64,000 nt of DNA, taken from NCBI RefSeq assembly GCF_003334765.1, contig NZ_QOWT01000005.1; one strand, given 5' to 3'. Positions 9,001-15,000 of the stretch are shown here, piece after piece. How positions within the stretch are numbered: position 1 is the stretch's first letter; each line of letters opens with the position of its first letter. This DNA comes from Escherichia coli. GTDB taxonomy: Bacteria; Pseudomonadota; Gammaproteobacteria; Enterobacterales; Enterobacteriaceae. The position numbers are program-made.

Positions 9001-12000
9001 CGCACTACAAACACAAACTGTTAATAGTACAACCGCGCCGCAGCCCAACTACATTCCGGGGCTGATTGCGGTGGTCGGGTGTGATGGCACCGGTAAATCC
9101 ACACTGACCAATGACCTGGTGAAATCGCTGCAACAACACTGGCAAACCGAGCGGCGCTATCTGGGGCTGCTCTCCGGCGAAGACGGCGACAAAATCAAAC
9201 GATTGCCGTTGGTTGGTGTCTGGCTCGAACGGCGACTGGCGGCCAAATCCTCGAAAACCCAAAGCATGAAAACCAAATCTCCGGCGCTATGGGCGGCGGT
9301 GATTATGTACTGCTTCTCGCTGCGAAGAATGGCGAATCTACGCAAGGTTCAGCGACTGGCGCAAAGTGGCGTTCTGGTGGTCAGCGATCGCTTCCCGCAG
9401 GCTGAAATTTCGGGCTTTTATTATGACGGACCGGGGATCGGCGTCGAACGTGCGACCGGGAAAATCAGCATGTTTCTGGCGCAGCGCGAACGGCGTTTAT
9501 ACCAAAAAATGGCGCAATACCGTCCTGAATTAATTATTCGTTTGGGGATTGATATTGATACTGCCATCTCCCGCAAGCCTGACCATGACTATGCCGAGCT
9601 GCAGGACAAAATCGGCGTCATGTCGACGATTGGCTATAACGGCACAAAAATTCTTGAGATTGATTCCAGAGCGCCCTACAGCGAAGTGCTGGAACAGGCA
9701 CAGAAGGCGGTTTCTCTGGTTGCCATCGTTTCTGACCGCCGAAGTTTAACTTAAGGCTGGCGGGATACTTTTTACTATCAACGATAAGGTCAGGCTGAAT
9801 TGGCGGGTTTTAACATCAAACATTGGTTTGCAGATGGCGCGTTTCGCACCATTATTCGCAATAGCGCCTGGTTAGGCTCCAGTAATGTCGTGAGCGCTTT
9901 ACTGGGTCTGTTGGCGCTCTCGTGTGCCGGTAAAGGGATGACGCCCGCCATGTTTGGCGTACTGGTGATTGTACAATCGTACGCCAAGTCGATCAGCGAT
10001 TTTATTAAGTTTCAGGCATGGCAGCTGGTGGTTCAGTACGGAACACCAGCATTAACCAACAATAATCCGCAGCAATTCCGCAATGTCGTCTCATTTTCCT
10101 TCTCGCTGGATATCGTCAGCGGCGCGGTGGCGATTGTCGGCGGCATTGCCTTACTCCCTTTTCTTTCCCATTCATTAGGTCTGGATGACCAAAGCTTTTG
10201 GCTGGCAGCGCTGTATTGCACGCTCATTCCTTCAATGGCTTCCTCCACGCCGACCGGCATTCTGCGTGCGGTAGATCGCTTCGATCTAATTGCTGTACAG
10301 CAAGCGACGAAACCTTTTCTGCGCGCAGCGGGGAGCGTCGTAGCCTGGTATTTTGACTTTGGTTTTGCGGGTTTTGTTATTGCCTGGTACGTGTCGAATC
10401 TGGTTGGCGGCACCATGTACTGGTGGTTTGCCGCGCGCGAATTACGCCGCAGAAATATCCATAACGCCTTCAAATTGAATCTGTTTGAGTCTGCCCGACA
10501 CATTAAAGGCGCGTGGAGTTTTGTCTGGTCAACCAACATTGCCCACTCCATCTGGTCGGCGCGTAACTCGTGCAGCACAGTGCTGGTGGGGATCGTGTTA
10601 GGACCCGCTGCCGCCGGGTTATTTAAAATCGCCATGACATTCTTCGACGCCGCCGGAACGCCAGCGGGTTTACTGGGCAAAAGTTTTTACCCAGAGGTGA
10701 TGCGTTTAGATCCGCGCACCACCAGACCGTGGTTGTTAGGCGTGAAGTCAGGTTTACTGGCGGGCGGAATCGGTATTCTGGTGGCGCTCGCGGTGTTGAT
10801 CGTCGGCAAGCCGCTTATTTCGCTGGTGTTTGGCGTTAAGTATCTCGAAGCGTATGACCTGATTCAGGTGATGCTGGGCGCAATTGTGATTTCGATGCTG
10901 GGCTTCCCACAGGAGTCATTGCTATTGATGGCGGGAAAACAGCGCGCTTTTCTCGTGGCGCAAACCATCGCCTCAATCGGCTACATCGTATTGCTGTTCA
11001 TGTTCTGTCATCTGTTTGGCGTGCTGGGAGCAGCGTTTGCTTATTTCGGTGGGCAATGTCTGGATGTGGTGCTCTCGTTAATTCCGACCTTAAAGGCATT
11101 TTTTCAGCGCCATTCCTTGCTTTATAACGCAGCCGGAGAGAAATCCTGATGATGAGAAAATATTTCCCGCTTGAGGCGAGCGAGCGTCTATTTGTTGCAG
11201 TTGAAGAAGATGATGTCGTTGATGCACAGGTCAGTTTGCCGCCGACTATCGCACTAAGTTGTACCACCGAAATCATCCATGATAATTACGCGTTATGCCT
11301 GCAATTCTGGCTCAATGGCGTCAATCGCCAGGAGTTACTGCGTTTAATATGCAAACAGGCCAAAGGCGATGAGTTGACTGCTGATGAGCGCAAACAATTT
11401 AAATACATGCGAGCGCGCTACAAGCACCTGCGTTTTGCGCAACGGCTGTATTTAAAGAAGCATCAGGCCGGATTTTTATTCGGCAAAACGACCGTTTTTT
11501 TGGGGCGTTTTCAGGACGGTTTTCGTAACGGTAAGAAAAATATTGTGTCGTATTACGGCAACTTGTTACGGGTTTATTTAAGCTCTCCGGTCTGGTCGTT
11601 GGTGAACTATTCATTACGCCATAGCCAGTTAGAAAGCGTAAGCGGTTTTATTGCCTATCGGCAAAAGCAAATGCATACCCTGAAAGAGATAATTGCCAAA
11701 CCGCGACTAACCGGCAGGGAATTTCATGATGTGCGAAAAATCATCAGCCAGCAGGTTTCTTATTACGACACCTTAAGATCGCTTGATCCTGAAAATAAAG
11801 AGGCGTTACAGATTTCCCGCTTCCTCGCCGCCATTAATGGCCTGATGGGGGATAAACACGACGACATGGTGGCGGATGATATGGAAAACCGCCAGTCGTA
11901 TGATGCACCGGTGGCGCTGGATAGCGATATTCGCCAGCGCTTAGAGCTGCTGATTTCGCGTTTTCCGCTATAACCGGAGCAATGATGTCATCTCGTTTGA

Positions 12001-15000
12001 TTATTGCGCTGATTATCATGCTCTTAGCCCAGGGTGTGCAGGCACACAATTTCGTCACTGGCAAAACGGTTACCCCCGTTTATATCCAGGAAGGCGGCGA
12101 GCTGCTTCTGAATAGCGACGACGAAATTCACTACCAAAAGTGGAACAGCACACAGCTGGCGGGAAAAGTCCGCATTATCCAGTATATCGCCGGGCGTAAG
12201 TCGGCGAAGAAAAAGAACTCACTGTTAATTAAAGCGGTTGAAGCGGCAAACTTTCCGCAGGATCGTTTTCAGCCCACCACCATTGTGAACACCGATGATG
12301 CCATCTTTGGTACTGGCTATTTTGTCGTTGGCAAAATCGAAAAAAATAAACGCCGCTATCCGTGGGCGCAATTCGTTATTGACGGCAATGGACTGGGACG
12401 CGTTGCCTGGCGGTTGCCGGAGCAGAGTTCAACCATTCTGGTGCTGAATAAAGACGGGCAAATTCAGTGGGCAAAGGACGGCAGCCTGACGCCGGAAGAG
12501 GTAGATCATGTCATTGCGCTGGCGCAGAAACTGATCAATGAATAAAAAATTCAAAGGATTGAGGGTGTTAGTGAGATGAAGCTGGTTGAACACTACATCA
12601 TGCGTGGTACGCGCCGTCTGGTGCTGATTATCGTCGGTTTTCTGATCTTTATTTTCGCCAGCTACTCCGCACAGCGTTATCTGACCGAAGCGGCAAATGG
12701 GACCTTAGCTCTTGATGTTGTGCTGGATATCGTTTTCTACAAAGTGCTGATTGCACTGGAGATGTTGTTACCTGTTGGTCTGTATGTGTCAGTTGGCGTG
12801 ACGCTAGGGCAGATGTATACCGACTCGGAAATTACCGCTATCTCTGCGGCGGGGGGCAGTCCGGGACGCTTGTACAAAGCCGTTCTTTATCTGGCGATAC
12901 CGCTAAGTATTTTTGTCACCCTTCTGTCGATGTATGGTCGGCCGTGGGCTTATGCGCAGATTTATCAACTGGAGCAACAGTCGCAGTCGGAGCTGGATGT
13001 TCGCCAGTTGCGGGCAAAGAAATTTAACACTAACGATAACGGACGAATGATCCTTTCGCAGACGGTTGATCAGGATAATAATCGCCTGACTGACGCGCTG
13101 ATTTATACTTCTACTGCCAATCGAACCCGCATTTTCCGCGCCCGTTCGGTTGATGTGGTTGACCCATCACCTGAGAAACCGACCGTTATGTTGCATAACG
13201 GGACCGCCTATCTTCTCGATCATCAGGGGCGTGACGACAACGAACAGATCTACCGTAATCTGCAATTACATCTGAATCCGCTGGATCAAAGCCCTAACGT
13301 CAAACGCAAAGCAAAATCGGTCACGGAGCTGGCGCGCTCCGCCTTTCCTGCCGATCATGCCGAACTGCAATGGCGACAAAGCCGTGGCCTGACAGCATTG
13401 TTGATGGCGCTGCTGGCCATTTCATTAAGTCGGGTAAAACCGCGGCAAGGGCGATTTTCAACGTTATTGCCACTGACGTTGCTGTTTGTTGCCATTTTTT
13501 ATGGCGGCGACGTCTGCCGTACGCTGGTGGCTAACGGTGCGATTCCCCTCATTCCTGGTTTGTGGTTAGTACCCGGACTCATGCTAATGGGCCTGCTGAT
13601 GCTGGTCGCACGCGACTTCTCTTTGCTGCAGAAATTTTCCCGATGAATGTTTTCAGTCGCTATTTAATCCGTCATCTCTTTCTCGGTTTTGCCGCCGCCG
13701 CAGGGCTATTGCTGCCGCTTTTTACCACCTTCAACCTGATTAACGAACTGGATGATGTCAGCCCGGGCGGTTATCGCTGGACTCAGGCGGTGCTGGTGGT
13801 GCTGATGACCTTACCGCGTACACTGGTCGAACTTTCGCCGTTTATCGCATTATTGGGAGGGATTGTTGGCCTGGGGCAGTTATCGAAAAACAGTGAGCTT
13901 ACCGCCATTCGCAGCACTGGGTTTTCTATCTTCCGTATTGCACTGGTGGCGCTGGTTGCCGGGATATTGTGGACTGTTTCGTTAGGCGCGATAGATGAGT
14001 GGGTGGCGTCGCCATTGCAGCAACAGGCGCTGCAAATCAAATCGACTGCCACCGCGTTGGGGGAGGACGATGACATTACCGGCAATATGCTTTGGGCCAG
14101 GCGCGGTAATGAATTTGTGACGGTGAAATCGCTGAACGAGCAGGGCCAGCCTGTGGGCGTGGAGATATTTCATTATCGCGACGATCTCTCGCTCGAATCC
14201 TACATTTTTGCACGCAGTGCCTCCATTGAAGACGACAAAACGTGGATCCTGCATGGTGTGAATCATAAAAAATGGTTGAATGGCAAAGAAACGCTGGAAA
14301 CATCAGATAATCTTGCCTGGCAATCGGCCTTCACCAGTATGGATCTTGAAGAGTTATCGATGCCGGGGAATACTTTTTCTGTCCGTCAGCTTAATCATTA
14401 CATCCATTATTTGCAGGAAACCGGACAACCCAGCAGCGAATACCGCCTTGCACTGTGGGAAAAACTGGGGCAACCGATCCTGACCCTGGCGATGATTTTG
14501 CTGGCTGTGCCGTTCACCTTTAGCGCCCCGCGCTCGCCAGGGATGGGTAGCCGTCTCGCTGTAGGCGTCATCGTTGGCTTACTCACCTGGATCAGCTATC
14601 AAATCATGGTCAATCTGGGGTTGCTATTTGCGTTGAGTGCACCTGTTACCGCGCTCGGTTTACCGGTAGCGTTTGTGCTGATGGCGTTGAGCCTGGTGTA
14701 TTGGTATGACAGACAACATTAAACCCGCCGTGGCGCAACACCACGGCGGGCTCACATTACTGCTTCAGAGTAGCAAATGCCTGAATGATGGCATCGATTT
14801 GCTCATGACTGTGGGCAGCGTTTACGCTACAGCGCAGCAGAGTGATGCCTGCAGGCGCGGCAGGTGGCAGGATAAGATTCACATAAACGCCCAGCGAAAT
14901 AAGCTCGCGCCAGATGCGTAAACCGTCCTCTTTCGAACCGATTATTACCGGCACTACCGGGCTAATATGTGAACTTAACTCATAACCCAGTTTTTGCAGA

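Follow-up and report, generated by a model that had tools for sequence, protein, structure and literature searches.

In Caulobacter crescentus, anionic sphingolipid determines polymyxin sensitivity and the robustness of the outer membrane, and it allows survival without lipid A. The region for the synthesis of ceramide phosphoglycerate (CPG/CPG2) in this organism spans 17 genes, CC_1152-CC_1168, among which CC_1166 (IPR002797) has been proposed as the phosphosphingolipid flippase and LptC2, LptF2, and LptG2 as the carriers to the outer membrane (Olea-Ozuna et al., PMC11324152). The genes lptF2, lptG2, and lptC2 can be deleted only when spt or the ceramide kinase gene cpgB is absent, and LptF2 and LptG2 bind each other as well as LptB (Uchendu et al., bioRxiv 10.64898/2026.04.12.717747). 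In the polyphosphate operon of the archaeon Sulfolobus acidocaldarius, two paralogs resembling dTMP (thymidylate) kinase, encoded beside a CHAD protein, together constitute a polyphosphate kinase, PPK3 (PMC12995831). Here, we compare with these systems a locus in a stretch of 64,000 nucleotides from Escherichia coli (assembly GCF_003334765.1, contig NZ_QOWT01000005.1; the whole stretch is referred to as the window), which is homologous to the Caulobacter region and in which a gene for a hypothetical protein of 274 amino acids (aa) lies between the putative flippase gene yghQ and a paralog of ytfJ. Our analysis suggests that the 274-aa protein is a CHAD-fold partner of the flippase and of dTMP-kinase-like kinases, and that together they form a variant head-group module in a kind of locus that is already known.

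The three genes at 9800-12545 are tightly packed on the plus strand and are followed by paralogs of the LptF and LptG genes:

9800-11149, plus strand: yghQ, full-length, 449 aa, with a TTG start as in the IAI39 RefSeq annotation; polytopic membrane protein of the MOP/PST family
11149-11973, plus strand: open reading frame (ORF) of 274 aa, "hypothetical" in RefSeq; predicted cytoplasmic CHAD-fold protein, translationally coupled to yghQ
11982/11985-12545, plus strand: ytfJ paralog, 186 aa; secreted, cysteine-free thioredoxin-fold protein of the YtfJ family

The coordinates and descriptions that a preliminary description of the window had given for these ORFs, including the continuation of the same-strand array into the LptF/G-like genes, hold. 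The array is indeed a compact unit adjoining a convergent lipid-biosynthesis operon, with gaps of 31, 45, -1, 8-11, 30, and -4 nt from yghS to the lptG-like gene (-4 to 45 nt overall). The ATG of the 274-aa ORF shares one base with the TGA of yghQ (TGATG) and is preceded by GGAG 9-10 nt upstream, while 8-11 nt separate the stop of the 274-aa ORF from the start of the ytfJ paralog, which likewise has GGAG upstream. A consensus scan of the interior from yghS to lptG found no long G+C-rich stem, only short candidates of 5-8 pairs, and the layout is as would be expected of one transcription unit. On our best reading, the three genes are the middle of a decoration-and-export operon, yghS-yghR-yghQ-274aa-ytfJ'-lptF2-lptG2, with yghT divergent from it.

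The 274-aa protein matches no Pfam or NCBIfam model, with no CHAD match even at E<=10, which bears out the preliminary remark that it has no recognisable motif. Conservation in related genomes, which that description had named as a check, proved to be strong: E. albertii has the protein at 89% identity, Pseudocitrobacter at 75%, Hafnia at 68%, Serratia, Sodalis, and Pantoea at about 60%, and Sphingomonadales and Acetobacteraceae at 35-45%. An exhaustive search returned 207 cluster representatives at E<=1e-3, mostly 270-300 aa long. An alignment of the protein with relatives brings out a pair of repeated motifs with many His, Arg, and Lys residues, RxxYKHLRFA...LGxFQD and FHxVRKIISxQV...INGLMGxxHD (in broader form, RxxxKHLRF and FHxxRKxxS...NGLMGxxHD). 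Among 50 sequences, down to 21% identity, R88, G119, D123, H193, R196, and D238 do not vary, while K92, R95, H105, K197, and H237 are at least 90% conserved. Conserved His and basic residues in repeated helical motifs are characteristic of CHAD, and the 274-aa protein also has the all-alpha fold of two helical bundles seen in solved CHAD structures. When 50 relatives were scanned singly, Pfam CHAD (PF05235) was the sole recurring family, matching 10 at E<=0.1 and 1 at E<=0.001, with a best E-value of 2.5e-5, and one homologue is named "CHAD domain-containing protein" by one source. Given these recurring weak matches and the motifs, we call the 274-aa protein a divergent CHAD-fold protein. As it does not qualify for membership by Pfam, the best description is that of a sister family separate from CHAD; our confidence in the identification of the folds in the locus is high. 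Compared with known CHAD proteins (PF05235; Ricinus 6qv5, Streptomyces PptA 6rn5, Chlorobium 3e0s, and the C-terminal part of YgiF), it falls under the Pfam threshold, and its gene is coupled to a flippase and lipid pathway, not to CYTH, ppk, ppx, or polyphosphate granules. No signal peptide or transmembrane segment was found in the E. coli protein, and it is therefore predicted to be cytoplasmic.

To place the protein among its neighbors, a locus scan with a 15-sequence alignment, taking one genome per species, yielded 136 encoding sites, of which 79 loci were kept, and the proteins of the E. coli locus were compared with the six-frame ORFs of all of them. The 79 loci come from Enterobacterales, Xanthomonadales (Luteibacter, Rhodanobacter, and Dyella), Sphingomonadales, Acetobacteraceae, Carnimonas, and one betaproteobacterial and one gammaproteobacterial metagenome-assembled genome, and most of these lineages are known or predicted sphingolipid producers. 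Kinase homologues are present in 70 loci and yghQ in 71, usually directly upstream of the CHAD-like gene, and spt lies within 10 kb of that gene in 44 of the 79. The two groups of loci differ as follows:

Enterobacterales-type loci (n=44): YtfJ paralog in 44, yghQ in 43, LptF2 in 40, spt in 39, YghR/S/T-like kinases in 39
Other loci (n=35): YtfJ paralog in 0, yghQ in 28, LptF2 in 0, spt in 5, YghR/S/T-like kinases in 31

Among the Enterobacterales-type loci, the missing genes fall at contig ends, and in rearranged loci yghQ-274aa-ytfJ' stays intact while lptG2-lptF2 and the kinases are displaced. It is the kinases and the flippase that persist as partners of the CHAD-like protein, whereas the Lpt permeases and YtfJ do not. 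This association with YghQ and YghR/S/T, in the absence of LptFG and YtfJ (0 of 35 non-enterobacterial loci), places the 274-aa protein in head-group synthesis or flipping. A record titled Martelella alba BGMRC 2031 holds a complete locus of the Enterobacterales type, with the YtfJ paralog among its genes, at 62-79% identity to that of E. coli; the record is named as an alphaproteobacterium, and the assembly is probably mislabelled or contaminated.

The same counts bear on the proposal in the preliminary description that the 274-aa protein is a candidate novel component of the flipping, handling, and delivery route, which would make it a structural part of transport, in periplasmic handling or as a bridge, working with YtfJ and LptF2G2 to bring the lipid from the inner to the outer membrane. 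The position of its gene between the flippase and the YtfJ/LptFG genes, its translational coupling to yghQ, and the lack of an LptC2 gene in the E. coli locus, where some component seems to be missing, are all in favor of such a role. However, the protein is without a signal peptide or transmembrane segment, its fold is that of CHAD and not the beta-jellyroll of Lpt proteins, and the 35 non-enterobacterial loci, none of which has LptF2 or YtfJ nearby, nevertheless keep the kinases in 31 cases and yghQ in 28. We therefore regard a structural role in transport as very unlikely, and periplasmic handling by the 274-aa protein is not supported.

The arrangement of the module varies among lineages. 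In the typical sphingomonad order, two to three kinase paralogs, yghQ, and the CHAD-like gene follow one another on one strand with overlapping ends, and in Xanthomonadales aasR-cerR-acpR-spt is inserted between the kinases and yghQ. Two Luteibacter species carry tandem CHAD-like genes (9629-11757 and 9107-10816 of their loci). In Acetobacter, the CHAD-like gene follows a kinase gene and stands beside a MOP flippase, GT4/GT2 glycosyltransferases, and a second kinase; in Acetobacter cibinongensis, a cas1/cas3 pair of a type I-F CRISPR-Cas system (14290-18644 of its locus) lies directly downstream of this cluster, probably by coincidence.

Domain fusions carry the same pointer to kinases as the partners of the CHAD-like protein. 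Two proteins of about 980 aa, P0251 and P0268, join a kinase domain of another fold, the APH/choline-kinase type (Pfam APH, 1.6e-7), to two CHAD-like copies, and P0251 matches Pfam CHAD at 0.0027; one metagenomic protein of 564 aa, P0124, consists of two fused copies of the CHAD-like domain. P0251 and P0268 (8001-10931 of their locus) are from an uncultured bacterium and bear an N-terminal signal or anchor sequence; the genomic contexts of P0251 were uninformative, and the P0124 gene is flanked by a GT4 glycosyltransferase gene and two unannotated ORFs of about 240 aa. A CHAD-fold protein might also act as a regulator that senses polyphosphate or phosphate and gates a kinase or the flippase, so that an anionic lipid costly in phosphate is made only when phosphate is plentiful. 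The lack of any DNA-binding or signalling domain, together with tandem duplications and kinase fusions that look more like those of a stoichiometric substrate-handling subunit, makes this improbable in our estimation.

The kinases encoded beside this protein are three P-loop paralogs:

7385-8077, minus strand: yghT, 230 aa, dTMP-kinase-like P-loop kinase paralog, divergent from yghS
8251-8964, plus strand: yghS, 237 aa, dTMP-kinase-like P-loop kinase paralog
8996-9754, plus strand: yghR, 252 aa, dTMP-kinase-like P-loop kinase paralog

YghR, YghS, and YghT are 32-40% identical to one another, and all three keep the GxDGxGKST P-loop, a DR(Y/F)PQ motif, and a lid-like RKPDH motif. Their matches to dTMP kinase models all fall below the curated cutoffs (NCBIfam, 2e-5 for YghT and 4e-8 for YghR), and YghR has further matches to P-loop families and a weak one to Thymidylate_kin. 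Searches with the profile of the family return solved thymidylate kinases first (3hjn, 8.6e-8), in an alignment that covers the LLFxxxR and DRY segments, both of which are kept in YghR/S/T. In dTMP kinases, these two segments contact the acceptor phosphate, and the thymidylate-kinase fold typically moves phosphate onto a phosphomonoester. Since the acceptor-phosphate motifs are kept, we consider it plausible that YghR/S/T act on a phosphomonoester acceptor and hence form a pyro- or oligophosphate product. The identification of these proteins as PPK2 or PPK3 was considered and set aside, as the profile prefers thymidylate kinases and no PPK2 is among the best 60 matches. In IAI39, yghT is a frameshifted pseudogene (9587-10278 of the IAI39 locus), whereas the window has an intact ORF of 230 aa; this third paralog may be dispensable in some strains.

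The pairing of several dTMPK-superfamily paralogs with a CHAD-type protein is also found in the PPK3 operon (dTMPK-like Saci_2019/Saci_2020 plus the CHAD protein Saci_2021; PMC12995831), so that by analogy the pairing in E. coli has a characterised precedent in polyphosphate chemistry. The two loci differ in that the one from E. coli lacks ppx and sixA and includes a MOP flippase, and in that all three of its paralogs keep the P-loop, DRY, and lid motifs, with no obvious dead regulatory subunit.

YghQ, the second persistent partner, matches Polysacc_synt (PF01943) at 3.2e-8, Polysacc_synt_3 (PF13440) at 1.1e-7, and the NCBIfam MOP flippase model at 8.4e-9, the last of these far under the cutoff of that equivalog. 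A crude Kyte-Doolittle scan gives at least 6 strongly hydrophobic 19-mers, a lower bound beside a full count of 12-14 transmembrane segments, and the protein thus combines a MOP/PST profile match with a polytopic architecture. It shares its Pfam/InterPro family (PF01943/IPR002797) with CC_1166, the predicted sphingolipid flippase of Caulobacter. We predict with moderate confidence that YghQ is a lipid flippase, its transport role being assigned by homology to a partly tested system, and a PST-type flippase implies a lipid-linked substrate.

Downstream of the ytfJ paralog lie the genes for the permease pair:

12576-13646, plus strand: lptF paralog (LptF2-like permease), 356 aa; TIGR04407 at 319.8 bits against a cutoff of 230
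13643-14722, plus strand: lptG paralog (LptG2-like permease), 359 aa; TIGR04408 at 305.1 bits against a cutoff of 240

The lptF-like gene begins 30 nt after the ytfJ paralog and overlaps the lptG-like gene by 4 nt. Both products score above their equivalog cutoffs and fit the pattern of LptF/LptG permeases, which includes six transmembrane segments, and at 29% (LptF-like) and 28% (LptG-like) identity to the housekeeping proteins they are paralogs of the lipopolysaccharide transporter and not that transporter itself. By homology to the partly tested Caulobacter system, we assign them a role in transport with moderate confidence. The preliminary description had read the array as a route for flipping the product of the convergent operon, handling it in the periplasm, and delivering it to the outer membrane. 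The flipping and delivery parts of that route gain support from the membership of YghQ in the family of CC_1166 and from the genetic and biochemical link of LptF2/G2 homologues to the export of anionic sphingolipid in Caulobacter, and the idea of export through a flippase and LptF2G2 is not new, having been published for the homologous Caulobacter locus. For the handling part, an involvement of the YtfJ paralog would be purely conjectural.

The YtfJ paralog scores 216 bits against TIGR01626 (cutoff 151.1), placing it in the YtfJ family, and the signal peptide that had been noted earlier is confirmed by a hydrophobic N-terminus and an AxA|HNF site conserved in 15 orthologues. It has no cysteine, and hence neither a CXXC motif nor a peroxidatic Cys, while a basic loop, IAGRxSAKKKN, shows little or no variation among the orthologues and lies, judging from the order of secondary-structure elements, after a strand and before a helix, the usual active-site spot of the fold. 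A periplasmic role in binding phosphate or another anion would be our guess. Two other roles were rejected, namely that of a redox partner of periplasmic CerR, owing to the absence of cysteine, and that of an LptC2 substitute by homology, as its fold is thioredoxin and not beta-jellyroll, although it might still stand in for LptC2 functionally. The housekeeping YtfJ of K-12 (PF09695/TIGR01626) has 184 aa to the 186 aa of the paralog, shares 55% identity and a comparable signal peptide with it, and belongs to the same YtfJ_HI0045 family; the paralog is a second copy that differs in lying inside the sphingolipid locus, in 44 of 44 Enterobacterales-type loci. The K-12 housekeeping gene (in the region 4436755-4439262) is found near cysQ, for a 3'(2'),5'-bisphosphate nucleotidase, and cpdB, for a periplasmic cyclic-nucleotide phosphodiesterase, two enzymes that act on phosphorylated nucleotides.

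The operon that converges on lptG carries the genes for the lipid core, and yghO lies beyond it:

14757-18808, minus strand: ceramide-core operon (IAI39 RefSeq annotation and ORFs)
14757-15929, minus strand: spt, serine palmitoyltransferase (IAI39 RefSeq annotation)
15929-16177, minus strand: acpR, acyl carrier protein (IAI39 RefSeq annotation)
16209-17123, minus strand: cerR-like NAD-dependent epimerase/dehydratase (IAI39 RefSeq annotation)
17120-18808, minus strand: aasR-like fatty acyl-AMP ligase (IAI39 RefSeq annotation)
19215-20357, plus strand: yghO, 380 aa; candidate ceramide synthase by position only

With spt, a dedicated acyl carrier protein, an acyl-ACP synthetase-type gene, and a CerR-type reductase, the convergent genes represent the central part of the "rhodobacterial" route to ceramide, and the spt-ACP-epimerase-ligase arrangement recurs in 44 other loci. 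On the mechanical ORF (17120-18871, minus strand, TTG start), the fatty acyl-AMP ligase would have 583 aa, whereas the IAI39 RefSeq product has 562 aa. The gene yghO co-occurs with the locus in 42 of the 79 loci; its product has no Pfam or NCBIfam match, its candidacy as the ceramide synthase comes from position only, and a published K-12 study screened YghO as an acetyltransferase candidate. Our confidence that this region (spt, acpR, the cerR-like gene, the fatty acyl-AMP ligase gene, and yghO) is the E. coli sphingolipid locus is high. E. coli B strains (BL21(DE3) and ETEC B7A) have been named as carriers, and the E. coli SPT and AcpR have been used experimentally (Padilla-Gomez et al., PMC9386255); the locus of E. 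coli UTI89 is drawn in Figure 2B of Uchendu et al. (bioRxiv 10.64898/2026.04.12.717747). Published placements thus comprise UTI89, ETEC B7A, and BL21(DE3), to which we add a check of IAI39. Searches of the literature by gene name (yghQ/R/S/O and YtfJ) gave nothing specific, and the chlorhexidine phenotypes of K-12 yghQ concern a truncated remnant and were not used as evidence.

The window is from the E. coli chromosome, in the hyb-yghU-gss-pitB-yghT...glcC region, and 9800-12545 is 99.8-100% identical to many complete E. coli genomes. The annotated order in IAI39, whose region is 99.8% identical and with whose annotation the ORFs of the window agree, is pitB, yghT, yghS, "hypothetical protein" (yghR), "lipopolysaccharide biosynthesis protein" (yghQ), "hypothetical protein" (the 274-aa ORF), "YtfJ family protein", lptF, and lptG, followed, convergent to lptG, by spt, the acyl carrier protein, NAD-dependent epimerase/dehydratase, and fatty acyl-AMP ligase genes and then by yghO and glcC. 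Counting presence as at least 80%, 4129 of the 5426 complete E. coli genomes have the three-gene stretch and 4052 have the locus as a whole (12.3 kb, 8078-20357), so that about 75% carry the locus. Two noncoding features bound the plus-strand array:

8078-8250, no strand assigned: yghT-yghS divergent intergenic region, 173 nt, AT-rich (GC 0.45); probable promoter region of the plus-strand array
14720-14754, no strand assigned: GC-rich inverted repeat of 16 bp; probable bidirectional terminator between the convergent lptG-like and spt genes

The latter is the sole 16-pair stem of the consensus scan. Apart from it and a 12-bp stem at 7346-7374, promoter and terminator scans gave nothing above chance, including the single sigma-70-like match in the yghT-yghS region (8173-8201), and no RNA family came out of an Rfam scan of 5000-22000. 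Immediately upstream of the locus lies pitB (5837-7336), for a low-affinity phosphate transporter, followed by the 12-bp stem as its terminator; the adjacency of pitB to the putative pathway for a phosphate-rich lipid is seen in E. coli (the window, IAI39, and K-12).

Set beside CC_1152-CC_1168, the E. coli locus has in common the ceramide-core set spt, acpR, aasR, and cerR, a flippase candidate of the Polysacc_synt family, and a pair of LptF/LptG paralogs, and in both cases an anionic sphingolipid of the outer membrane is expected. It differs in lacking LptC2 and the Caulobacter head-group enzymes, namely the Tam41-like protein, the DAGK-like ceramide kinase CpgB, the CDP-alcohol transferase, the phosphoesterase, and the two nucleotidyltransferases, in whose place stand three dTMP-kinase-like paralogs, the CHAD-fold protein, and the YtfJ paralog. 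Because the Caulobacter enzymes are absent and E. coli has a module of its own instead, we read the latter as a distinct head-group module. With somewhat better than even confidence, we favor a module, distinct from that of Caulobacter, in which a head group phosphorylated by the kinases, the CHAD-fold protein, and flipping by YghQ feed an Lpt-like export route. From the observed gene content, folds, conservation, and linkage we infer its substrate, its phosphate chemistry, the order of its steps, and every protein-protein or protein-lipid contact in it.

In this scheme, the convergent operon and yghO would make a ceramide-type lipid on the cytoplasmic side, and YghR/S/T would phosphorylate it, a pyro- or oligophosphate head group being plausible. 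The cytoplasmic CHAD-fold protein would then bind the phosphate-rich head group or a polyphosphate donor and couple the kinases to YghQ, and YghQ, as a PST/MOP transporter, would move the anionic lipid to the periplasmic leaflet. LptF2/LptG2 would extract it in the direction of the outer membrane, with power presumably from the housekeeping LptB as in Caulobacter and with an onward path that probably involves the housekeeping LptC/A/DE, or else one in which the YtfJ paralog takes part. The secreted, redox-dead YtfJ paralog would be a periplasmic accessory specific to Enterobacterales, which may bind the same head group via its basic loop. Our confidence in the phosphate chemistry and in the exact job of the CHAD-fold protein is low to moderate.

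Several observations weigh against this scheme or parts of it. For the CHAD assignment, the 274-aa protein itself does not match the Pfam CHAD profile, and hhalign of the family profile with the single E. coli YgiF (CYTH-CHAD) sequence was not significant (probability 0.3), a weak test with a one-sequence template. The shorter relatives P0185, P0236, and P0241 have signal-like N-termini, other distant members have signal or anchor sequences, and part of the CHAD-like family may be extracytoplasmic; a few CHAD-like homologues are orphans in unrelated contexts. For the kinases, the cPPK3 homologue 2plr/5h70 matches the YghR/S/T profile at an E-value of 0.0049 over the P-loop only, no closer than ordinary dTMP kinases, and no ppx or sixA is present in the E. 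coli locus. The reported periplasmic location of Caulobacter CerR complicates an order in which cytoplasmic phosphorylation is followed by flipping, and the searchable literature yielded no report of a lipid product of this locus in E. coli. Finally, the sphingomonad module is flanked by unrelated genes (for an ECF sigma factor and a TonB receptor), away from spt, and this distance, together with the glycosyltransferase context in Acetobacter, means that the substrate might not be ceramide.

The last point is at the center of an alternative in which the kinases and the CHAD-like protein form a PPK3-like polyphosphate module, or decorate a phosphorylated glycolipid or polysaccharide for which YghQ is the flippase, with the sphingolipid link being loose and the adjacency to spt secondary. 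The same dTMPK-like and CHAD pairing in the Sulfolobus PPK3 operon, the isolation of the module among unrelated genes in Sphingomonadales, the adjoining GT4/GT2 glycosyltransferases in Acetobacter and on a metagenomic contig, and the retention of yghRST by K-12 after the loss of the rest are all consistent with this. Against it, most carrier lineages are known or predicted sphingolipid producers, with spt at <=10 kb in 44 of 79 loci; the PST flippase implies a lipid-linked substrate; and there is neither ppx/sixA nor any specific similarity to cPPK3. We consider this alternative unlikely. Returning to the ceramide-based scheme, a bolder extension is that the module of kinase paralogs, CHAD protein, and PST flippase produces a lipid-anchored pyro-, oligo-, or polyphosphate and exports it; in E. 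coli, this would be a ceramide bearing a phosphate chain and delivered by LptF2G2 to the outer membrane. We hold this extension to be rather unlikely, but if true, it would define a new class of bacterial envelope lipid and provide a second, membrane-coupled case of the pairing of kinases with CHAD that is seen in the archaeal PPK3 operon.

The unfamiliarity of the locus from K-12 annotation is explained by the insertion element that took its place there. In MG1655 (3129043-3132408), IS5 (insH9) replaces everything from codon 355 of yghQ to the start of yghO, that is, the 274-aa gene, the ytfJ paralog, lptF2, lptG2, spt, acpR, and the cerR-like and aasR-like genes, leaving a yghQ cut to 355 aa, a yghO annotation that abuts the element, and yghR/S/T. 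K-12, the usual laboratory reference, is thus without a locus that about three-quarters of complete E. coli genomes carry. The analysis presented here predicts that the E. coli lipid would have a phosphate-rich head group, and it would take CHAD-type domains beyond polyphosphate granules and into a pathway for a membrane lipid.

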